IMG/VR virus record: IMGVR_UViG_2529293172_000014
Source: a virus
Lineage: Duplodnaviria > Heunggongvirae > Uroviricota > Caudoviricetes
Strand: one strand, 5' to 3'
DNA: 12,342 bases
Numbering within the stretch: the stretch's first letter is position 1; every line of letters starts with the position of its first letter. Below are positions 1,927-12,194 of the stretch, piece after piece. A program made the position numbers and the translations under genes. Below the pieces are notes generated by a model. The model was given only the letters and a program-made list of their open reading frames with translations. It was not told the DNA's origin and did no database searches.

Positions 1927-2256
1927 GTGCTTGACACACAGGAATTAGCTCCAGTTGCTATTGCGCTCCTGCTTTCAGTAATTGGTGGGATAGGCACGTT
2001 CCTGATGGATGTCCGAGACGGTCGCCAGTCTGGCAATTTGTTGGGATTGGTTACGGAGATCTTTGTTGCAGTGACAGCTGGCGCGGTGGCGTACCTATTG
2101 GGGCAACACGAGGGCTGGGAGTTATCAATTACGTACTTAATGGTAACGATAGCCAGCAATAACGGTCATGAGGTGATTTCAGGGATGAAACGAGTGAATA
2201 TCGATAGCATTCTGAATGTTCTTACAAGTTTGGTGAAAAAGGGAGGCGGGAAATGA
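1927..2256 (+). CDS. lydA: Holin-like small membrane protein (LydA-like)
   Basis: 109 aa, GTG start with a strong AGGAGG RBS. Hydrophobic segments LAPVAIALLLSVIGGIGTFL and LLGLVTEIFVAVTAGAVAYLLG, charged C-terminus KKGGGK. Position at the head of the dar operon matches recalled P1 lydA. Not alignment-verified. Confidence 0.6.
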   Translation: MLDTQELAPVAIALLLSVIGGIGTFLMDVRDGRQSGNLLGLVTEIFVAVTAGAVAYLLGQHEGWELSITYLMVTIASNNGHEVISGMKRVNIDSILNVLTSLVKKGGGK

Positions 2257-2696
2257 TTGGCTGGGGTGTATGCGTTCTTGCGTTAGCCTTAGCCGATCGC
2301 TATTTGCTAAAACGCAAGGACATCACGCATTTAGAACTTGGTGATGTGGAAATTAAACCGGGTTTCATCCGGGTGCCGTTCAAATACCGGTCTAAATTCC
2401 CGTTTTTGCGCGGCGCAACGGTCAGATATTGGATCCGCGATGTTCAGAAGCCAACGACAGTGATTGAAGGCGAACAACGTTGTCTGACGTCGGCTGAACA
2501 GGGCGAAAACAGTGAATGGTTGTACATACCCACTGAATATATGGGTAAAGGAGAACGGCTGTGGCATTTCAACGTCATGGTTACGCATGGCGACTCGTTC
2601 ATTAACCCGTTGTATCGGATTTTCCCTGTTACTCAGCAAATCCGCAGAAGTTACGTAATAAATCTCGCACAGGATGTGTCAGATGACGAAAAATAA
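2253..2696 (+). CDS. lydB: Antiholin-like protein (LydB-like), N-terminal hydrophobic anchor
   Basis: 147 aa; ATGA start/stop overlap with the preceding gene, RBS AGGGAGG. N-terminal MIGWGVCVLALALA segment then a soluble domain. Assignment by position and size relative to recalled P1 lydB. Confidence 0.5.
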   Translation: MIGWGVCVLALALADRYLLKRKDITHLELGDVEIKPGFIRVPFKYRSKFPFLRGATVRYWIRDVQKPTTVIEGEQRCLTSAEQGENSEWLYIPTEYMGKGERLWHFNVMVTHGDSFINPLYRIFPVTQQIRRSYVINLAQDVSDDEK

Positions 2697-3285
2697 GTAT
2701 GCAACGGTCGATTTTGACCAGGTTAATGAAAAGGGGCTGAAATCCCTTATCGCGGCGATCAATAAAACCGGTGTTACGGTAATTGAGGTTGACTCCAGCA
2801 ACCGCGCAACAACGAAAGATGGCGTTAAAGTTAAAACCGCAAAGCTGGTTCTTAACGACGGACAAATTCTTGCCATACAGGTAAACGATACTGGCGATAT
2901 ATCGTCTGTGAGGCTGAATGGAAAAGCTATTCCTAACGCTCAGTCGCCGGATATCAAGACGCTTGGTACCGTCATGGGGCAAGCGGCCCGCAAAAACTCC
3001 GCAAAATTCCAGAAATCACTGATCGCCAAAGCGAAACGTGTTGCCAATCCGGTAGACAAGAAACCGGCAGTAAAATCCAACTTTCAGCGCCTGCAAGAGG
3101 CAAAACAGCGGAATGCTCAGGTGGTTGCCGCTTATAAATCAGCGCAGAACTCGGTGTCTTTCAATCAACAGCAGATCACTGATTTGCGGGCGAAGCTGGA
3201 TAAGGAGACAGGCCGACTCAATAACGAAAAGGCCCGAAATGGCGAACTCAAACGCCGTCTTAAGCAACTGAAAGCAGGAAATTAA
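2683..3285 (+). CDS. hdf: Hdf-like head-morphogenesis protein of the Dar system (paralogous to the DarA N-terminal region)
   Basis: Start chosen at the second ATG (2683, MTKNKYATV), which has AGGA 8 nt upstream; the 2674 ATG has no spacing for an RBS. Shares LNDGQILAIQV / KNSAKFQ blocks with the downstream DarA-like protein (LSDGQTISILF / KNSAKFQ). C-terminal K/R-rich coiled-coil-like tail. Confidence 0.55.
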   Translation: MTKNKYATVDFDQVNEKGLKSLIAAINKTGVTVIEVDSSNRATTKDGVKVKTAKLVLNDGQILAIQVNDTGDISSVRLNGKAIPNAQSPDIKTLGTVMGQAARKNSAKFQKSLIAKAKRVANPVDKKPAVKSNFQRLQEAKQRNAQVVAAYKSAQNSVSFNQQQITDLRAKLDKETGRLNNEKARNGELKRRLKQLKAGN

Positions 3286-3286
3286 C

Positions 3287-5206
3287 ATGGAACAGTTCAA
3301 TATCAATAAAGGGGTGACGATCAAGCCTGGGCTTGACGTGCTTCCCCCGCCAGTGACTGATGATGAATATCGCGCATTAATGGCCGGTGAGGACCGCTAT
3401 CTGATGACGGAATCCAACACCCTGGAGGAAATCGAGGCTACGTTCTTCTATGACACGCCGATCCACTGGTGTGCTACGGATTTACTGGAGGCGATTAGTT
3501 CTACTCGTTTGCAGTTACACCGGACCATGCAGGCATTTGTCCGGGCATTGAACCAGAAGCTGAATGGTACCGGAATCTCTGCGGGGAGTGATAAAACGGG
3601 GGATGTGGCCCAGAGCGGCGCGCGCGCGATCGGCGGTGCTGAAATTGGCCGGGCACGTAACGTTAACGGGCTGCCGGTCCTGCCAGCCATTATTCCGCTC
3701 AGTGATGGTCAGACTATCAGCATTCTGTTTCATAGCCCGACAGCGGAAAACCGGATCACCAATAGCGATACGCTGGTTGCTTTCCAGTTCTTACTGAATA
3801 AAAAAGACGTTACTCACACCGTTGCTCCGATGAGTGGACGTGATATGACGCTGGCGCAGGTCACCATGAAACTTGCCAACCTTGCAGAGAAAAACTCGGC
3901 AAAATTTCAGCGTGCGCAGAAGAAGAAAAAAGCCCTTGTTGATGAAATAACCCAACTACAGGCTGACAGTGACCAGAAAGAGGATGCCATGAGCGACCTC
4001 GTGGATCAGGTGGCAGCGGTAGAAGGGCAGAAGGTAGATCTGGAGCAGAAAATTAACGCTGTTGCATCGGAAGCGGATTCTCTTTATGAAGAGAATGAGC
4101 GTTTGCAGACGGAGATTGATCAGCTCAATCGCACTGGTGGGCGCGATACCATTGCTCCTGCGGGGATGACTGGTGGACACTCTCGCGCGATGACGGATCG
4201 CCTTGCCAGTATCAAAAATCGTATGCATATGAACGGGGAAGTGACGCTCAGTAATGGTGCATCAATGAAGCAATTCATTGAGGACGGCGAAGGGTATATC
4301 CAGTTAACCGATTCGGATGGCAGCGTGTACATGATCAAGGCTAAATCCATACAGGGTGTGGACATGGCAGATGCGATCGGCAAGCTGTTTAAAGCCTATA
4401 AAGCGGGTAATGTATCGGAATACCTGGTCCAACCAGAAGAACATAAACCGGAAAACGTCGAACCTGAACCAGCGGAGGATACCGGTAGCTCTTCGCCTGA
4501 ACCAGAAGTCTCTGTAGGTGCATATCGATATGCCCTGCAAATGCGTCCGGCGGCCCCTGGCGCAATACCTGAAGGTAACAAAGCAATTCTGCCGCGCCCT
4601 GATGAAGGTGACCCGTATTATGAATATGCACGCTACGGCATTGCTACTTACGATACCCCGCTTTCTGATCAGCAAATGAGTGAGTACGACCTGAAGTTAT
4701 TGCCTCGCGAGGATTCTTTCGACTTCCTGGCGAAGACACTTACTAATGGTCCGTTTGGCAAATATGCACAAAAAGCTCTGGAGCTGGCCACCAGCTCACC
4801 AGACGAGTTCCGCGTAATGCTGAAAACTCAGTTTCAAAAAACTTTCCCCAATATTGCGTTTCCGGGGGGCGCTGGCACCGAGAAAATGGTGCAGAGCATG
4901 ATCAATGCATTGCAGGCCGAAGTCGGTGAGATTACTCAGCCAGAACCTGCCCCGGCACAGCCTGATGAAACGGTTAGCGAAGCAGATGCAGAGGCTAATA
5001 AAGCCATTGAATATCTCAATAACGTGATGGATATGCAAAGCACTGACATGGCGGAGATCCGTAACGCCCGGGGTAATGTCCGGGAAGCGATTGCAGCCCT
5101 TCAGGCTGCCGGGCGTTTTGAGGAAAACGAAGAGCTGGTTAATGGCGCTGCTCGCCACTTGGCTGATCTGCTGGTAGCAATCCAGAAAGCGGGGGTAGCG
5201 GCATGA
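3287..5206 (+). CDS. darA: DarA-like internal head / antirestriction protein
   Basis: 639 aa; starts 1 nt after the hdf stop with an AGGAA RBS. Central coiled-coil-like region (LVDEITQLQADSDQKED...ENERLQTEIDQL) and an acidic Pro/Glu-rich linker (PEEHKPENVEPEPAEDTGSSSPEPE). Size and operon position match recalled P1 DarA. Confidence 0.65.
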   Translation: MEQFNINKGVTIKPGLDVLPPPVTDDEYRALMAGEDRYLMTESNTLEEIEATFFYDTPIHWCATDLLEAISSTRLQLHRTMQAFVRALNQKLNGTGISAGSDKTGDVAQSGARAIGGAEIGRARNVNGLPVLPAIIPLSDGQTISILFHSPTAENRITNSDTLVAFQFLLNKKDVTHTVAPMSGRDMTLAQVTMKLANLAEKNSAKFQRAQKKKKALVDEITQLQADSDQKEDAMSDLVDQVAAVEGQKVDLEQKINAVASEADSLYEENERLQTEIDQLNRTGGRDTIAPAGMTGGHSRAMTDRLASIKNRMHMNGEVTLSNGASMKQFIEDGEGYIQLTDSDGSVYMIKAKSIQGVDMADAIGKLFKAYKAGNVSEYLVQPEEHKPENVEPEPAEDTGSSSPEPEVSVGAYRYALQMRPAAPGAIPEGNKAILPRPDEGDPYYEYARYGIATYDTPLSDQQMSEYDLKLLPREDSFDFLAKTLTNGPFGKYAQKALELATSSPDEFRVMLKTQFQKTFPNIAFPGGAGTEKMVQSMINALQAEVGEITQPEPAPAQPDETVSEADAEANKAIEYLNNVMDMQSTDMAEIRNARGNVREAIAALQAAGRFEENEELVNGAARHLADLLVAIQKAGVAA

Positions 5207-5580: not shown

Positions 5581-8568
5581 ATGAGCTTAAGCGATCAGGT
5601 GGTAATGGCCACCAGCATAGAAACGCTGATCGAGCTGCTAAAGAACCTGCCCGGTTATGGGCGGGTTTCGTATGTGGTGACAGCGAAGGGAGACGAGGTA
5701 AAAACAGCGTTTGATATCGTCGATGCCTCAGCTCTTTTGGTATCCAATACTCTGGATGGGAAAATTAATCCTGACTATCCCCAGGAACTTCAGCCGCGCG
5801 ACCGGACCCGCGCATCCAGCCTTCTTCAGGTTAACCAGATATCCAAAGATTTGCGGCCTGCTCAGCTTACTGATTCCGGTTTATCCAGCCATGGTGCGCC
5901 GATAATTGGTGAGGACAATGCCGTTGAGTCAGGTAATGGACGGACCATGGGGATCATCAAAGCCTATCAGGACGGCAATGCGGATCGGTATCGTGAGTAC
6001 CTGATTGATCATGCGACCGAATTCGGCATACGACCTGAAAAGGTTGAATCAATGACGGCTCCGGTACTGGTGCGCCGCCGGTTAACCAAGGTTGACCGCG
6101 TTCAGTTTGCCAAGGACTCAAATATTTCTGATCTTCAGGAAATGGCAGCCAGTGAAAAGGCTTTTGTTGATGCCGACAGCATAACACCGGCGATGATGGC
6201 GCTTTTTAACCCGTCAGAAAGCGGAGATCTGCTTAGCCGCAGTAATGACGCGTTTATTCGCGGATTTATGACGCAAGTTGGTGCCACACAGGCGGCTGGC
6301 CTTGTAACTGAAGATGGGCGACCAACACGGCAACTTGTAGACCGTATACAAAACGCGATCTTTGCCAAGGCATATAAGGATGCGCGCCTGGTAAGGATGG
6401 TTGCAGAAGAACCTGATCCGGACATGCGTAATGTTCTGACGGCGCTTAATGCGGCAGCCAATGATTTTGTCCAGATGCAGGCTTTATCAGGAGAAGCGCA
6501 CAAGCAGGCTGTGACAACTATCGTTGATGGTATTGAAACAGCGGATAGCCTCGATAAAAAGGCGCTGGCGGCATTGAAAGATGCGGTAGACCTGGTAAGG
6601 CAATCGAAGGAGTCAGGCCAACATATTAACGATGTTATTGCTCAGGGGGATATGTTCAGCGAAACGGCCCCGGAAGTGAAAGCACTCGCGTTGTTCATCG
6701 TCGCGAATAACCGTAGCGCGAAGCGTATGGCCTCCGCCTTTAAGTTGATGGCTCAACGTATCAATGATGAGTTACAGCACCAGGGCCAGGCGCTGGGGGA
6801 TATGTTTGGCGGTGGTGATGTGTCGTTACAGGATATCCTTCGCCAGGTGTCTCAGGAACTGGAAAACGAAGGCATGCAAGGGATATCCGGCGGTCTTTTC
6901 GAGTCCGTTTCCGGCGGTAGTTACAATGGTGTTGCTCCATATACCAGTTTGCTATTACATCGGGCATCCGGCATCAAAGACATTATTCATCTGATCAGGC
7001 TGCTTTCCCGTACAGATCCCCAGGATGAACAGCTTGTACAAGTGCTTGCGCATTTTGTTCGAATGCCTGTTGCCGACGTGAAAAAATGGTGCCGATTATT
7101 CGGTATCAGCAATTCGTTACTTCGCGGCTTGTTAAATCACGCATCCTCCCTTGGGCGCGATGGCTTTGACGAGATAGCGCAGGCGATAAAAAACGGAGAT
7201 ATGCCACCAGCTATTGACTGGTTTTCCATTCGCCCAACCAGGGTGAAAGCATTCCTTAGCGCGGCGCATTCGGCATCACCATTGGCAGAAATGGTTCAGA
7301 GGTTGTCGCTCATATTCACAGACCATACCGCGTTGGGTGATCTGACTCTGGACGAGATGAAAGAAGCCTCCATTCAGTGGGCCGATCAACAAAATGAGGT
7401 TAACTCTGACTTCTTGCCAGCATTCAGGAAGGCCGTTAGTAAAGCTGATGATGCCCGTGGAATTCTGAGGGCATTTAAGGCATTGCAAAGTCAGGTTAAT
7501 AAACATGTCGGTGATATCGATGGGGTAACGGCGGAAGGCAGGGATATCCTTAAAGAGCACGGCATAACGCCAGAGTTTATTGATGAGATCAGGACTGATA
7601 TGCAGCGTGAGGTCGTATCGTCCCTGCAAATCGTAGCCAGAGCGTTGGCGGATGCTAATCCGAAGAGTGCGGCCATTGTTAACCGTGTTATTGGTGATAT
7701 TGAAGCATCGGAGGGCATGGGGGCGCTGAAACTCTTCCTTTCGCGAGCGTTTAATCCTAACGGCAATATTCTCCCCGGCATTATTGGTGAGGCTAAAAAG
7801 TATGTCAGCGAAGAAGAACTTGAGCATCTTGACCAACTACTTAAGCGATTCTCATATAACCCGCAGACACGCTGGCAAATGAATCAGCAAAGTATGGGTT
7901 CGGTCCACGAGAAAGTGTTATCTGCCATGAACAGTGCGATCGCCAACTCATCCGTATCTGAAGAAAAAGCTCTTGAGTGGGCCGACTCTTTTATCACGGA
8001 AGAAGTGGAAGAAGCCCGCGCTGGACAGAATGGTGGGATAGACCTGCGCAAGGAACTTGCTGATATTTATCGCCTGACCGGCGGTAAAATTTCGACCTTA
8101 TCAAAGGTGGTTCACCACCAGGGAAGGGCATATGCAAATATTAATGGTGTTGTTGCTGTCAATTTGAACGATGAAAATGCAAGTGCACTGTGGCACGAGC
8201 TGGGTCATCATCTTGAGTACAGTAACCTTGGTTTGTTAGAGAAAGCCCGGTCATTCCTGAAGGCCAATGTTGAAGGGGATAAGCCATCTTTCGTTAATAT
8301 CGGTGGGCGTGGCAAGCCTGAATGGTGCTTCAGATCTCGATTGAGTAATATTTATATGGCGAAGGTATACCCGCCAGCCTCAGTAAGTAACACCGGGAAA
8401 ATTCGGCAGAAATCACCGACTATTTCCAAAACGTCAGCAACGGAAGTATTCTCTATGGCTCTTCAGTTGTATCATGACAAAGAGGCCGCTGCCGCATCAC
8501 TGATGAATGGTGACGGATTGCTGGAACTGTTATTAGGTGTGGCAAAGGAGCTAAATAATGCAGATTAA
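5581..8568 (+). CDS. ddrB: DdrB-like large Dar-operon protein; carries an HEXXH motif near the C-terminus
   Basis: 995 aa, uninterrupted ORF in operon with the preceding genes. WHELGHHLEYS at codons 871-877 (nt 8191-8211). Size and position match recalled P1 DdrB. Confidence 0.6.
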   Translation: MSLSDQVVMATSIETLIELLKNLPGYGRVSYVVTAKGDEVKTAFDIVDASALLVSNTLDGKINPDYPQELQPRDRTRASSLLQVNQISKDLRPAQLTDSGLSSHGAPIIGEDNAVESGNGRTMGIIKAYQDGNADRYREYLIDHATEFGIRPEKVESMTAPVLVRRRLTKVDRVQFAKDSNISDLQEMAASEKAFVDADSITPAMMALFNPSESGDLLSRSNDAFIRGFMTQVGATQAAGLVTEDGRPTRQLVDRIQNAIFAKAYKDARLVRMVAEEPDPDMRNVLTALNAAANDFVQMQALSGEAHKQAVTTIVDGIETADSLDKKALAALKDAVDLVRQSKESGQHINDVIAQGDMFSETAPEVKALALFIVANNRSAKRMASAFKLMAQRINDELQHQGQALGDMFGGGDVSLQDILRQVSQELENEGMQGISGGLFESVSGGSYNGVAPYTSLLLHRASGIKDIIHLIRLLSRTDPQDEQLVQVLAHFVRMPVADVKKWCRLFGISNSLLRGLLNHASSLGRDGFDEIAQAIKNGDMPPAIDWFSIRPTRVKAFLSAAHSASPLAEMVQRLSLIFTDHTALGDLTLDEMKEASIQWADQQNEVNSDFLPAFRKAVSKADDARGILRAFKALQSQVNKHVGDIDGVTAEGRDILKEHGITPEFIDEIRTDMQREVVSSLQIVARALADANPKSAAIVNRVIGDIEASEGMGALKLFLSRAFNPNGNILPGIIGEAKKYVSEEELEHLDQLLKRFSYNPQTRWQMNQQSMGSVHEKVLSAMNSAIANSSVSEEKALEWADSFITEEVEEARAGQNGGIDLRKELADIYRLTGGKISTLSKVVHHQGRAYANINGVVAVNLNDENASALWHELGHHLEYSNLGLLEKARSFLKANVEGDKPSFVNIGGRGKPEWCFRSRLSNIYMAKVYPPASVSNTGKIRQKSPTISKTSATEVFSMALQLYHDKEAAAASLMNGDGLLELLLGVAKELNNAD

Positions 8569-8869
8569 AATCGCAGCGCCATTAGGCGGAGATGCCATTA
8601 TCGAATTTGATGATAATGAAGAAGTTTCCGGGCGTTTAAGCATTATCTCCGGTGACATTACCGAGGACATGATCGCTGAAGCCATAGCTGGGGCAAATCC
8701 CAATAGCTATATGGGATTCGTTAACACCCTTGATGCTCCCGCAAGTGATGTTCTCCGAACGCTGCATCTTTACGCTGGCTGGTTTGTTGATTGGCCAGCA
8801 GTAGATGGTGGCGATGAGGACGACGACGACGATGATTTTGGTGATCATGTAGACCAGATCGTATATTGA
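8558..8869 (+). CDS. Small highly acidic protein with a poly-Asp tract
   Basis: 103 aa; AAGGAG RBS 7 nt upstream of the ATG; overlaps the ddrB stop by 11 nt (translational coupling). Roughly 24 Asp/Glu against 3 Lys/Arg; DEDDDDDD tract encoded by GATGAG(GAC)4GATGAT at 8813-8836. Confidence 0.55.
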   Translation: MQIKIAAPLGGDAIIEFDDNEEVSGRLSIISGDITEDMIAEAIAGANPNSYMGFVNTLDAPASDVLRTLHLYAGWFVDWPAVDGGDEDDDDDDFGDHVDQIVY

Positions 8870-8871
8870 AG

Positions 8872-8897
8872 AAATCCCGCCAATTGGCGGGATTTTT
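8872..8897. terminator. Rho-independent, probably bidirectional, terminator between convergent operons
   Basis: Perfect 10-bp stem AAATCCCGCC (8872-8881), loop AATT, GGCGGGATTT (8886-8895), followed by TT on the plus strand. Lies exactly between the stop of 8558..8869 (+) and the stop of 8901..9995 (-). Confidence 0.7.
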
Positions 8898-8900
8898 ACC

Positions 8901-9995
8901 TCACGAGAAACTCTTTTCTGATGTCAGCCAACAGTGCTCGTGCATATCTCTTGGTGGTTTTTCGACAAATGCCTCTTCAGCCACATCCTGCCAGGGGATT
9001 TGTTTAGCCCATTCAGTTATAGCGTTATGGTTTGCCGAGAATAACGGTATTGTATAGGCCTTCAGCCAGTCTAATGTGCTGGAGTTGTGTTTTTGAGCGT
9101 GATGTTTCGCATGGTGTTTGGCGATCACGATCGTAGGCACTACCCATTTACTACCGTCAGTCATTGTGAAGTGCATATTACGGGGAACAGATGACTTTTC
9201 CATCAACTCCCGAATCCCTGGGAATTTCCCCAAGATCAATCGGCGATATTCATCGCTATTGCGCCCACCAAACTCTTTGGCTTTGAATTCAAGATATGCT
9301 TCAGAAACGAGAGGTGAATCCTCTGTGTTTAGAGTTATCGCCGTGAAAAAACCAGCAGGATTGTTTTTACTATGGGCCAACCGGTGATGCGAATCATAAA
9401 AGTACCCTTTCTCGCGTTCCGATGGTTTCGACAGCAACAGCAGGCGCGAGTCATAATTGGTTAAATTGCCAGTTATCACTGCATGAGCGCGATCGCTGAT
9501 TTCCGCCGAGTTAATAACGATGAAAAGATCGTGCGGTCCAGTAAAACCAGCCAGAGACTCTTCGTTATTCAGACAATAGGTTATATAGACGCATCCCCAT
9601 GTTTCACTGATATGCACCAACCCTTTGTCAGGGTGTATTCTGAAATAATTGCCAAGAAAAGTGTGTTTTTGGGTAACTCGCTCCCAATAACGGAACATAT
9701 AGTCAATTATTGTTTTTCGACAATCGTTAATCGCAGGAGAAACAACCACTGTACGGGAACACGAATACAGTATTGTTTGCAGGATGCTAATCACTGCCAC
9801 AATAGAGGTTTCCCCAATACCATGTGGTGTGGTGGCAGTGATTTTGGCTCCGGTGTTCTTTATCGCGTTAATAATTTTTGCTTGATGAGGTGTTAACTCA
9901 ATATCAAGCAACTCTTTTGCTGCCAGTTCCCAATTGTCTTTATACCGTTCTATCAGTGCTAACCAGGCAGATTCATTCTGTATACGATTAATCAC
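8901..9995 (-). CDS. Hypothetical protein (364 aa); degenerate P-loop-like GIGETS segment and a His-rich HAKHHAKHHAQKH motif
   Basis: Long minus-strand ORF; GTG start at 9995 with GAGGTGG RBS; overlaps the upstream gene's stop by 8 nt. No motif I can assign with confidence. The layout (LTPHQ...GIGETS...DLFIVINSAE...ITGN) loosely recalls an ATPase domain, but the Walker lysine is absent. Confidence 0.6.
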   Translation of the reverse strand: MINRIQNESAWLALIERYKDNWELAAKELLDIELTPHQAKIINAIKNTGAKITATTPHGIGETSIVAVISILQTILYSCSRTVVVSPAINDCRKTIIDYMFRYWERVTQKHTFLGNYFRIHPDKGLVHISETWGCVYITYCLNNEESLAGFTGPHDLFIVINSAEISDRAHAVITGNLTNYDSRLLLLSKPSEREKGYFYDSHHRLAHSKNNPAGFFTAITLNTEDSPLVSEAYLEFKAKEFGGRNSDEYRRLILGKFPGIRELMEKSSVPRNMHFTMTDGSKWVVPTIVIAKHHAKHHAQKHNSSTLDWLKAYTIPLFSANHNAITEWAKQIPWQDVAEEAFVEKPPRDMHEHCWLTSEKSFS

Positions 9996-10776
9996 TTTCC
10001 ACCTCTTCCGTGGTGTTTTCTTGCAGTTCTGTTAATGCAGCACGACATAGGTTCCGGGCATTGGCTATAGCCACACTTTTGACTTCATCCGTCATCGTGC
10101 AGGTAATGTACTGATCGAGTTCTTCAGCGCGGATGATGCTTTTGCCAATCAGAAACTGTATTTGCCATAGCAGATCGGCATCCATAATCAGAATTTCTGC
10201 CGGGCCTTCAGGGCCAGCCGGGAAGGAAACATAAGACTGTTTGCCCAGGCCGACAACTCGACAACTTGCTTCAAGAATTGCGCGCTTGAGGTCTGACTTT
10301 ATAACGGAAACAGGTTGATTTTCACCAGTGATTACGCCGTTGACATGGAAAGGCATGTAGCTTGAAATACGCTCTACTTTCCACACGCCAGCAAGCGATC
10401 CTTCATGCAGCACAATGGGGGTAACCGCGAGTTTCATCTCACCATATAACTGCTGGCAGATAGCTGGATTGCTGAATACATCTAAAGGCTCACATTCAAA
10501 CAGCGGCGCAATCTGCATGAGGTCCATCATGGTCATCCCTGGGGTACGAGCAGTAATGAATTTGCGCATACCAGTATCCATTGCGCTCCAGATTGCTACA
10601 CCATGCTTTTTGCTCACTTCTTCAGTAAAGCCAAGGTGGCACATGATGGTTTTTTCGATAGCCAGATCAGAGATAGAAACCTTTTCGCCAGGTACTCCAT
10701 CATTATTGATGGTCACTTCGACACTCTGGCCATTACGTAGGCGGTATTGAATGGTTTTAGTATTTTGTGCTGTCAT
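9988..10776 (-). CDS. Hypothetical protein (about 263 aa from ATG 10776)
   Basis: Long minus-strand ORF, translationally coupled to the downstream 8901..9995 gene. Start placed at MTAQNTK (ATG 10776) because the track's extension to 10896 would overlap the small upstream ORF 10791..10973; starts at 10890/10896 cannot be excluded. No recognisable catalytic motif. Confidence 0.5.
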   Translation of the reverse strand: MTAQNTKTIQYRLRNGQSVEVTINNDGVPGEKVSISDLAIEKTIMCHLGFTEEVSKKHGVAIWSAMDTGMRKFITARTPGMTMMDLMQIAPLFECEPLDVFSNPAICQQLYGEMKLAVTPIVLHEGSLAGVWKVERISSYMPFHVNGVITGENQPVSVIKSDLKRAILEASCRVVGLGKQSYVSFPAGPEGPAEILIMDADLLWQIQFLIGKSIIRAEELDQYITCTMTDEVKSVAIANARNLCRAALTELQENTTEEVESD

Positions 10777-10790
10777 AGTCTTTTCTCTGC

Positions 10791-10973
10791 TTAAAAACTG
10801 ATGTATTGCGTCTTCAGGTGGGTTAGGAATGTTTTCCCACCAGCGAAAGCAATATCTCGTGGTGTTCTGTTCGTTAAAAACGCGTGCCATTGCCAACTTT
10901 GGCGTTTTTTAGCGAGTTCGTGCTTTTGTTGGCGTTTGGACCACCGCTTTTCTTTCAGTCGTTTTTTACTCAT
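10791..10973 (-). CDS. Possible small basic protein (60 aa), tightly packed between ssb and the next gene
   Basis: MSKKRLKEKRWSKRQQKHELAKKRQ...; starts 5 nt after the ssb stop and ends 15 nt before ATG 10776. Weak RBS. Could instead be a non-coding spacer; an 8-bp inverted repeat AAAAACGC...GCGTTTTT (10876-10883 / 10903-10910) lies inside it. Confidence 0.3.
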   Translation of the reverse strand: MSKKRLKEKRWSKRQQKHELAKKRQSWQWHAFLTNRTPRDIAFAGGKTFLTHLKTQYISF

Positions 10974-10978
10974 AAACT

Positions 10979-11467
10979 CTAAAACGGAATATCGTCTTCA
11001 AAGTCCATTGGAGGTTCGTTATTGGCGCTGCTCTGAGGTTTGCCGCCACCGCTGTATTGCTGGTGGTTTTGAGGTTGGTTTGACTGCCCCCAGCCATTTG
11101 AGGACTGTGAATCGTCGCGGCGAGTGCCGATCATTTGCATGGTGCCGCCCTGGCTGACGATAATTTCCGTCGTGTAACGTTCTACACCGGCGTCATCAGT
11201 CCACTTACGGGTTTTAAGTTTCCCTTCGATGTAGACCTGAGAACCTTTTCGTAAATACTCACTCGCAATTTCAGCAAGTTTTCCGAACAAAACGACTTTA
11301 TGCCATTCTGTTTGCTCTTTCTGTTGGCCCGTTTGCTTATCGCGCCATGATTCATTCGTTGCGATGCTGAGTCTTCCGACTGCGCCGCCATTTGGTATAT
11401 ACCTGATCTCCGGGTCTTGCCCCAGGGTACCAATCAGGATGACTTTGTTTACACCGCGTTGTGCCAC
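10979..11467 (-). CDS. ssb: Single-stranded DNA-binding protein
   Basis: [23 protein letters not shown]...[14 protein letters not shown]-fold core, Gly/Gln-rich linker and the C-terminal acidic tail [12 protein letters not shown] start at 11467. Confidence 0.95.
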
Positions 11468-11636
11468 TTTTCTTACCTAATAAAATAAATTAATTAGAGC
11501 AATAATGTATATCTTTGAAACGTGGCTAACAAGTGATTTGCATTATCCTGTGCCTTCTAAAGGGATCGAGTCAGTCGGTATTGGCTGTGAATGAGTGTTT
11601 GTCCTGGAGCGTAAAAAATTCGCTTATGAGGTCTTT
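11468..11636. promoter_or_regulatory. Divergent promoter region between ssb (leftward) and lyz (rightward)
   Basis: 169-bp AT-rich non-coding gap between divergently oriented starts; contains TTGAAA (11515-11520) and CATTAT (11541-11546). No promoter element pinned down with confidence. In P1, lyz is a late gene, so an Lpa-type late promoter is expected here. Confidence 0.3.
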
Positions 11637-12194
11637 ATGAAGGGAAAAACAGCCGCAGGAGGCGGTGCAATTTGCGCTATCGCGGTGATGATTACCATCG
11701 TGATGGGTAATGGCAATGTGCGAACCAACCAGGCGGGGCTTGAGCTGATTGGTAACGCTGAAGGTTGCCGACGTGATCCATACATGTGCCCGGCGGGGGT
11801 ATGGACTGACGGGATCGGTAATACACACGGGGTAACGCCGGGTGTGCGAAAAACCGACCAGCAAATCGCCGCTGATTGGGAAAAGAATATCCTGATCGCT
11901 GAACGCTGTATTAATCAGCACTTCCGGGGCAAAGACATGCCCGATAATGCCTTCAGTGCAATGACAAGCGCGGCATTCAATATGGGATGCAATAGCTTAC
12001 GGACCTACTACAGCAAAGCGCGAGGCATGCGAGTAGAAACGTCCATCCACAAGTGGGCGCAGAAAGGGGAATGGGTGAATATGTGTAACCATCTCCCTGA
12101 TTTCGTGAACAGTAACGGCGTGCCCCTGCGAGGTTTAAAGATTCGCCGTGAAAAAGAACGCCAGCTTTGCCTGACGGGGCTTGTCAATGAATAA
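11637..12194 (+). CDS. lyz: SAR (signal-arrest-release) endolysin, T4-lysozyme-like muramidase (P1 Lyz-type)
   Basis: Start at ATG 11637 (GAGG RBS 6 nt upstream), not the track's 11595. 185 aa beginning MKGKTAAGGGAICAIAVMITIVMGNGN (weakly hydrophobic Gly/Ala-rich SAR segment), then NAEGCRRDPYMCPAGVWTDGIG with Glu42, Cys44, Cys51, Thr57 and Cys13 at the positions I recall for P1 Lyz. Confidence 0.9.
   Translation: MKGKTAAGGGAICAIAVMITIVMGNGNVRTNQAGLELIGNAEGCRRDPYMCPAGVWTDGIGNTHGVTPGVRKTDQQIAADWEKNILIAERCINQHFRGKDMPDNAFSAMTSAAFNMGCNSLRTYYSKARGMRVETSIHKWAQKGEWVNMCNHLPDFVNSNGVPLRGLKIRREKERQLCLTGLVNE

Follow-up and report, generated by a model that had tools for sequence, protein, structure and literature searches.

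The closest described relative of the protein considered here is PacB, the terminase large subunit (TerL) of bacteriophage P1. PacB is a core protein encoded next to pacA; its Walker A lysine, Walker B Asp-Glu pair and arginine finger are all in place, and it carries an RNase H-like nuclease domain of about 200 amino acids (aa). The variability and low GC content of another part of the P1 genome, the isaA-IS1-isaB locus, have been published under the names RD-2 and region 2 (PMC6906374, PMC9603915). These papers treat the same locus as the present work, at the level of gene content, and the portions of their text that were retrieved do not identify its 364-aa occupant as a terminase paralog. 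Here, the locus was analysed in a 12,342-nucleotide stretch of viral DNA (IMG/VR record IMGVR_UViG_2529293172_000014), which is called the window throughout. The block under study, at positions 8901-10973, holds three minus-strand open reading frames (ORFs) that are co-oriented with ssb, lie directly downstream of it and are tightly packed, as an initial annotation of the sequence had described and as the ORF coordinates bear out. The last of the three genes encodes a protein of 364 aa, termed dTerL here, which its sequence and predicted fold identify as a catalytically dead extra paralog of PacB. Unlike PacB, dTerL is optional, has lost the catalytic residues named above, and carries an unrelated domain of about 93 aa in place of the nuclease domain. 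It is located in the early ssb operon, not beside a gene for a small terminase subunit (TerS) or a portal protein, and is not the sole packaging ATPase.

The initial annotation had left the 364-aa protein unmatched. BLASTP aligns dTerL to P1 PacB with 34% identity over 284 aa (E = 2e-50), and the aligned part of PacB, residues 11-289, comprises its entire ATPase domain. The protein thus shares ancestry with a core packaging protein of P1, but as a dead additional paralog and not as the pacB product itself. The identity of dTerL to the genuine D6-like TerL is 35-38%. PacB and the D6-like PacB-type TerLs are homologous to dTerL over the entire ATPase domain (34-38% identity) and have the same fold; the Q-motif is common to all of them, as are, in the lid/linker region, the motifs FYDSHH, (E/D)SP and GGR...G.FP. 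Among the PHROGs families, dTerL matches phrog_5902, for which no function is listed (E = 1e-186), and weakly phrog_2, terminase large subunit. A profile search recovered more than 1,000 ordinary TerLs (~470-485 aa), which align to the first 60-70% of dTerL. The search of 5.8 billion proteins returned only a cluster at 96% identity, a relative at 53%, and a genuine TerL at 26% whose gene has portal and capsid genes as neighbours. When the three ORFs were scanned against Pfam, NCBIfam and PADLOC, no match exceeded the threshold, and sequence searches of the PDB with dTerL were empty.

The AlphaFold2 model of dTerL has a mean predicted local distance difference test score of 83.8, with values above 90 over residues 10-260. 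In a Foldseek comparison with the PDB, the top 30 matches to the model are all TerLs, including Sf6 gp2 (8e-10), HK97, the P74-26 ATPase domain (template modelling score 0.67), D6E and T4 gp17. Remote-homology searches and structure prediction, which the initial annotation had named as the way to check the two larger proteins, thus lead to a TerL fold for dTerL and to no informative fold match for IsaA, the product of the middle gene. Phages that carry dTerL keep an intact pacA-pacB pair elsewhere, and dTerL is therefore an additional paralog. Database labels for the protein conflict: it is hypothetical in some records, including the annotation by PGAP of a plasmid identical to the window over this region, and terminase large subunit in MH422554, which is misleading. 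We hold the identity of dTerL, together with its domain anatomy, with high confidence.

The N-terminal part of dTerL has a TerL-type ASCE P-loop ATPase fold according to both the model and the BLASTP alignment. The catalytic motifs within this fold are ablated. Walker A reads GIGET, compared to GTGKS in PacB, and a glutamate thus occupies a column that is lysine in 100% of 70 TerLs. The Walker B Asp-Glu pair is replaced by Asn-Ser (VINS compared to IDEA), or by Ile-Asn in one alternative alignment; over the longer segment, the window encodes IVINS where PacB reads YIIDE. The NPT motif is KPS, and the arginine of the arginine finger is isoleucine. In total, 21 of the 67 conserved ATPase-domain columns, defined as those conserved in at least 85% of the 70 TerLs, are retained. 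The best preserved part is the lid/linker subdomain (residues 186-262), with an identity to PacB and the D6 TerL of 45-51%, as against 20-36% for the nucleotide-binding core. It is inferred from these replacements and the missing nuclease domain that dTerL cannot hydrolyse ATP or cut DNA.

The C-terminal domain of dTerL sits where the nuclease domain would be expected, and dTerL terminates about 130 residues before the point at which PacB does. The domain (residues 272-361) matches phrog_17928 with an E-value of 8.7e-15. Standalone homologs were found in 18 unrelated viral contigs, most of them about 100 aa long, and they align with the C-domain end to end, including the invariant D-G-S-x-W and Trp positions (MxDGSxW ... 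WA ... W ... W). Because the C-domain matches a standalone family, dTerL is a fusion protein in which a small phage domain has been joined to a dead TerL ATPase domain. Unlike dTerL, the phrog_17928 proteins are unfused and do not have the His-rich helix HHAKHHAQKH, which is specific to the fused form. The possibility that the C-domain is an internally deleted nuclease domain was rejected: hhalign of the C-domain against the TerL profile gave a probability of 0.2%, with no similarity to the nuclease domain, and the domain was then found on its own. Searches of Pfam and, with both the single sequence and the family profile, of the PDB gave no match to the C-domain. Sixty of its 105 alignment columns are invariant across P1-like and D6-like copies. 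The standalone genes neighbour CI-like repressors, an Erf annealing protein and DNA methyltransferases in the early regions of unrelated temperate phages. In one contig (L090, 4927-5241), a standalone phrog_17928 gene lies between a 419-aa TerL gene and the portal gene, the sole packaging-module context seen besides the dTerL fusion.

The distribution of dTerL extends to a second lineage of phage-plasmids. D6-like contigs of 48-92 kb in IMG/VR have the gene order cre-like recombinase ... dut - DUF2829 - isaA - dTerL - phd/doc, and their copies of isaA and dTerL are 47% and 52% identical to those of the window. These contigs also hold a genuine TerS-TerL pair, with a TerL of 502 aa that has the motifs GTGKS and LDEASG and is 56% identical to PacB. 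The gene was found in 17 D6-like loci; the remaining ones, including reference D6, have isaA without dTerL, a presence/absence polymorphism that mirrors the one in P1-like elements. The dTerL gene lies directly downstream of isaA wherever sequence on that side was available, which was so in 16 of the 17 D6-like loci (the sequence of L022 is too short upstream) and in four of four P1-like loci. In the D6-like loci the two genes overlap, or dTerL starts shortly after isaA ends. In the window, the 8-nucleotide overlap at 9988-9995 reported in the initial annotation is genuine: the stop codon of isaA and the GTG start codon of dTerL share GTGATTAA, and a strong Shine-Dalgarno sequence, GAGGTG, is positioned 5 nucleotides upstream of the GTG. 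The arrangement indicates that dTerL is always translationally coupled to isaA.

Four subfamilies of dTerL can be distinguished (P1-type, D6-A, D6-B1 and D6-B2). All are 364-366 aa long, while being only about 50% identical to one another. The Walker A lysine position is occupied by E, R, H or Q, and the position of the catalytic glutamate by S or A in all four. For dTerL, closely related P1-type alleles give ratios of nonsynonymous to synonymous substitution rates (dN/dS) of 0.31-0.42, and deeply diverged copies give 0.17-0.36, compared to 0.06-0.13 for ssb. The ratios point to purifying constraint on dTerL that is real but relaxed, and the comparison of alleles indicates that the protein is maintained by selection, at 364-366 aa, in the two phage-plasmid lineages. 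Two of the D6-like relatives (L010 and L023) are 97-100% identical at the nucleotide level in the flanks and the C-domain (97% for the C-domain), whereas the TerL-like domain of about 800 bp is only 62% identical (dS 1.35, omega 0.30). This mosaic shows the pseudo-ATPase domain behaving as a divergent cassette exchanged on a constant backbone.

The window is from a P1-like (Punavirus) phage-plasmid. Positions 8870-10980 are 100% identical to plasmid p1303_95 of E. coli 1303 (IncY, 94,959 bp), and blastn matches to reference P1 cover window positions 8401-8867 (hxr) and 9987-11700 (isaA, ssb and lyz). Between these matches, reference P1 holds isaB and IS1 where the window has the entire 364-aa gene. 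The isaB gene was considered as a remnant of dTerL and rejected, as there is no DNA match and the BLASTP E-value is 0.05. The initial annotation had singled out the interval from ddrB to ssb as a possible variable hotspot, and the slot between hxr and isaA does differ in content among P1-like elements. It is occupied by nmpC, without isaA, in P7; it is empty in SJ46; it holds a 95-aa ORF in Ro157c2YLVW; and elsewhere it holds IS1 or ISVsa5, or a 242-aa plus-strand ORF. In pIPCEC31_2 (L049), a HipA-family toxin gene, yjjJ (2000-3304), occupies the exact slot of dTerL, from hxr to isaA. Among 337 PLSDB plasmids that bear isaA, dTerL accompanies it in 119; the pair is also present in the phage records 813R1, MH422554 and MH445380. 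The initial annotation, which saw in the block the best candidate of the window for accessory or novel cargo, would have been refuted had both larger proteins been homologous to core genes present at this locus in all P1-like genomes; this is not the case, as dTerL is present in about a third of the isaA-bearing plasmids. Its impression by eye that the block is AT-rich holds modestly: the GC content is 0.450 in the block, 0.499 in the dar operon and 0.480 in the whole window, with a minimum of 0.431 in the part of the 364-aa gene that encodes the N-domain.

The conserved element of this variable region is isaA, not dTerL. The initial annotation could name no P1 gene for the middle ORF and gave its length as 263 aa. 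The ORF exists, and the protein is 262 aa long, starting from a conserved ATG at 10776. It is 95% identical to P1 IsaA and has the same position after ssb; the synteny of the blastn match across 9987-11700 identifies it as IsaA. The match to phrog_2326 has an E-value of 5e-149. Read from a TTG, the ORF would encode 302 aa, but PGAP annotates 9988-10776 in the identical plasmid, and the conserved length of IsaA is 262-264 aa. In reference P1 (NC_005856; L001, 5080-6042), IsaA is annotated as 320 aa from an upstream GTG, an extension that corresponds to window positions 10777-10944. The 320-aa form is merely the longest ORF that starts with GTG. It was rejected as the start of the protein because the extension is broken by stop codons in two genomes, TAA at 10909-10911 in the window and TAG in MH422554, and the start of P1 isaA is therefore probably over-called. 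The name IsaA, which stands for IS1 insertion-associated gene A, refers only to the IS1 that neighbours the gene in reference P1. The dN/dS of isaA is 0.05-0.14, and these values indicate a gene under strong purifying selection. The gene is restricted to P1/D6-like elements. PDB searches with the single IsaA sequence and with the family profile were empty. A candidate distant homolog with 38% identity (P0020) was rejected, as its contig of 1.7 kb carries the same gene in an assembly full of frameshifts.

Other genes recur around isaA in its relatives. A DUF2829 gene, which belongs to the family of the Thoeris inhibitor Tad2, is present in many of them (L008, L009, L044 and L048 among P1-like loci, and L010-L042 among D6-like loci), and not in the window. 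The P1-like version, annotated at 225 aa, is flanked by the 60-aa ORF and isaA; in nearly all of the D6-like elements examined the gene is immediately upstream of isaA, and its D6-like product has 146 aa. A recombinase-like ORF of about 340 aa, with a resemblance to Cre by eye, is located a short way upstream of isaA in D6-like and more distant elements of about 90 kb (L010, 4594-5622; L028, 10942-11970; L095, 682-1707), and is followed by conserved ORFs of 112-114 aa and 158-174 aa. In L094, the relative of isaA is immediately adjacent to a homolog of this 114-aa ORF.

Table 1. Coordinates of features in the window, listed from left to right.
Feature	Position	Strand	Description
cin		plus	first of the plus-strand genes
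lyd holin genes		plus	follow cin
hdf		plus	follows the lyd genes
darA	3287-5206	plus	
ddrA		plus	between darA and ddrB
ddrB	5581-8568	plus	
hxr	8558-8869	plus	
Hairpin AAATCCCGCC-AATT-GGCGGGATTT	8872-8895		between the convergent hxr and dTerL stops; perfect 10-bp stem, T-rich tracts on both strands
dTerL	8901-9995	minus	364 aa, GTG start; optional cargo, absent from reference P1
dTerL C-domain	8901-9182	minus	aa 272-364 and stop; fused copy of the free-standing family phrog_17928 (~100 aa)
dTerL N-domain	9183-9995	minus	aa 1-271; TerL ATPase fold with ablated motifs, lid best preserved
isaA	9988-10776	minus	P1_gp017 ortholog; 262 aa, acidic, isoelectric point (pI) 5.0; phrog_2326; conserved accessory gene
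Maximal ORF over isaA	9988-10896	minus	302 aa
60-aa ORF	10791-10973	minus	very basic; fills the spacer between ssb and isaA
ssb	10979-11467	minus	opens the operon; product 97.5% identical to P1 Ssb
Putative C1 operator ATTGCTCTAATTAATTT	11487-11503	minus	Ossb/Op21 equivalent upstream of ssb; 17 nucleotides, read from the sequence
lyz		plus	after ssb

The features of the window are collected in Table 1. At its left end, a Cin-type recombinase gene and two holin-family genes of the lydC/lydA region (581-1153 and 1613-2256) show that the usual P1 order cin-lyd-dar lies upstream of the block. At the other end, the longest lyz ORF starts from a GTG at 11595 (11595-12194, 199 aa), whereas lyz is annotated from the ATG at 11637 by PGAP and in P1 (185 aa); the additional stretch of the longer form extends into the region of the divergent ssb/lyz promoters.

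The signals around the minus-strand genes are consistent with a single early transcript that is repressed by C1 and comprises ssb, the 60-aa ORF, isaA and dTerL. In P1 and P7, the C1 operator Ossb/Op21 is annotated at the position where ATTGCTCTAATTAATTT lies in the window, and a C1 operator upstream of ssb would place the whole minus-strand block under repression in the prophage. No minus-strand terminator was found by a consensus scan from ssb to the end of dTerL, and no minus-strand sigma-70 promoter by a promoter scan inside the block. The hairpin between hxr and dTerL, which the consensus terminator scan missed, is probably a bidirectional terminator that closes the ssb-isaA-dTerL unit; it is the operator, the lack of internal signals in the scans and this distal hairpin that together fit one transcript. 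An Rfam scan of positions 8500-11700 returned two sub-threshold matches only, and the weak match to Trp_leader at 8800-8900 probably reflects the hairpin.

Whether the 60-aa ORF is coding is evenly balanced on the sequence evidence. The ORF is very basic (the initial annotation had called it basic), with a pI of 11.5 and a net charge of +12.8. Its ATG follows immediately upon the ssb stop codon in P1, which would make translational coupling possible. Such an ORF is improbable by chance, as frames of at least 55 codons arose in 19 of 5000 shuffles of the 202-nucleotide spacer. No stop interrupts the frame in the window or in any of the 10 readable P1-like alleles of the 11 examined. On the other side, its dN/dS of 0.25-0.93 points to weak selection. 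The search for relatives gave no family match and no homologs outside P1-like elements; the ORF is absent from D6-like loci and is not annotated by PGAP. A weak match to mREase_IV of PADLOC (E = 0.0087) and a match in Pfam are both sub-threshold.

The block is best read as the distal part of a C1-controlled early ssb operon in which dTerL is an optional last gene. The dTerL protein is a duplicated PacB-type TerL that kept the ATPase fold, above all the lid, lost the catalytic motifs and the nuclease domain, and gained the phrog_17928 domain. A protein that neither hydrolyses ATP nor cuts DNA would have to act by binding. Most plausibly, dTerL would be a terminase mimic that, early in the lytic cycle, occupies a partner surface of the real large subunit on PacA/TerS, on the TerL ring or on the portal. 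Such mimicry would modulate or poison packaging, with an effect either on the timing of the phage's own packaging or on the packaging of a rival, related element. The better preservation of the lid, as a retained interface, and the standalone C-domain gene found between TerL and portal genes in one phage speak for this mode. Specificity for the partner would reside in the N-domain, which is divergent and exchangeable, and the conserved C-domain, perhaps with IsaA, would supply a constant function. This mechanism is tentative, and the overall explanation, in which the well-founded anatomy is blended with the mechanism, stands at an even balance. In a more pointed and rather speculative form of the proposal, dTerL would be a weapon, expressed early by phage-plasmids, in which the dead TerL domain offers surfaces that differ between alleles and the fused domain is a constant effector or anchor; it would poison competing P1/D6-type motors or blind host immunity that senses TerL.

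A precedent in concept is provided by factors of phage-inducible chromosomal islands (PICI) and Staphylococcus aureus pathogenicity islands (SaPI) that bind the small terminase and block or redirect packaging without enzymatic activity. They resemble the proposed mimic in that packaging would be altered through binding. The terminase-interfering PICI/SaPI factors are not known to be derived from TerL.

Several observations weigh against a role of dTerL as a packaging mimic in the ssb operon. Reference P1 lacks dTerL yet packages normally, and dTerL is therefore dispensable. It is missing from 218 of the 337 isaA-bearing plasmids, and its dN/dS of 0.3-0.5 is relaxed relative to that of isaA or ssb. 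Co-transcription with ssb is read from sequence signals alone. Most standalone relatives of the C-domain are encoded in early regions and not in packaging modules. In P1, isaA and isaB were found to be non-essential by CRISPR interference (PMC10695390). The dTerL gene of phage 813R1 contains a 1-bp indel that causes a 3'-proximal frameshift. In the same record (vB_EcoM-813R1, L003), ddrB is annotated as two coding sequences (107-2383 and 2380-3069), and the frameshift and the split gene together suggest sequencing errors or real decay.

An alternative is that dTerL is an anti-defence decoy, which, produced early, would intercept TerL-sensing receptors, the STAND NTPases of the Avs1-3 type, unproductively before PacB appears; the diversified N-domain would then reflect an arms race with the sensors. 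Avs systems are documented to recognise terminase, and the setting of the gene suits this function: the dar anti-restriction operon adjoins it, a DUF2829 gene of the Tad2 family is found in the same operon in many relatives, the slot holds a HipA-family toxin in another plasmid, and both the early C1-controlled placement and the mosaic-cassette pattern of the alleles fit. However, binding of a TerL-shaped protein activates Avs, and a mimic could therefore set the system off and not block it. Recognition by Avs3 draws on active-site residues of the ATPase and on the nuclease domain, and dTerL has neither. The catalogued anti-Avs proteins are a ligase and an Smf-like protein, not TerL mimics, and PADLOC gave no match for dTerL or IsaA, although it leaves anti-defence genes uncovered. 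We consider the decoy unlikely.

It is less likely still that IsaA and dTerL act with the single-stranded DNA-binding protein, and in D6-like elements also with the dUTPase, as accessories of early replication or recombination. According to this explanation, dTerL would be a non-catalytic scaffold with a P-loop fold, or a DNA-binding factor, unrelated to packaging. Besides the gene neighbourhood, it draws on fold matches, which are below reliable thresholds; the acidity of IsaA is unusual for a binder of nucleic acids, and the explanation does not account for why a terminase fold in particular was retained and diversified. Least probable is that dTerL is a duplicated terminase gene that has lost its function and is drifting to deletion in a recombination hotspot: the loss of all catalytic motifs, the free variation at the Walker A lysine position, the relaxed constraint (omega 0.31-0.57), the frameshifted copy of 813R1, and the frequent absence of the gene or its replacement by insertion sequence elements would fit decay, but the frame of 364-366 aa is intact in four subfamilies that are about 50% identical, dN/dS is 0.17-0.36 at depth, the 60 invariant C-domain columns extend across lineages, conservation also covers the ribosome-binding site and the coupling to isaA, and a domain fusion followed by long conservation is unlike a decaying gene.

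The variability of the locus and the existence of isaA are already known, whereas the dead PacB paralog looks to be undescribed: the searchable literature was found to contain no description of a catalytically dead PacB paralog, a terminase mimic or a decoy. Through the fusion in dTerL, phrog_17928 gains its first structural context. TerLs are among the most conserved phage proteins, serve as hallmark genes and are targets of bacterial innate immunity. A TerL paralog that selection maintains although it has neither ATPase nor nuclease activity would clearly be a pseudo-enzyme derived from the packaging motor, particularly one that is joined to a small domain widespread among phages and has diversified as a cassette. 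If dTerL does act as a weapon, it would be the first described pseudo-enzyme copy of a phage's own terminase to serve in conflict, and an arms race would be recorded in the mosaic cassettes of its N-domain. The dTerL protein would thus offer a handle on how P1-type phage-plasmids regulate or contest packaging, or evade the sensing of TerL.

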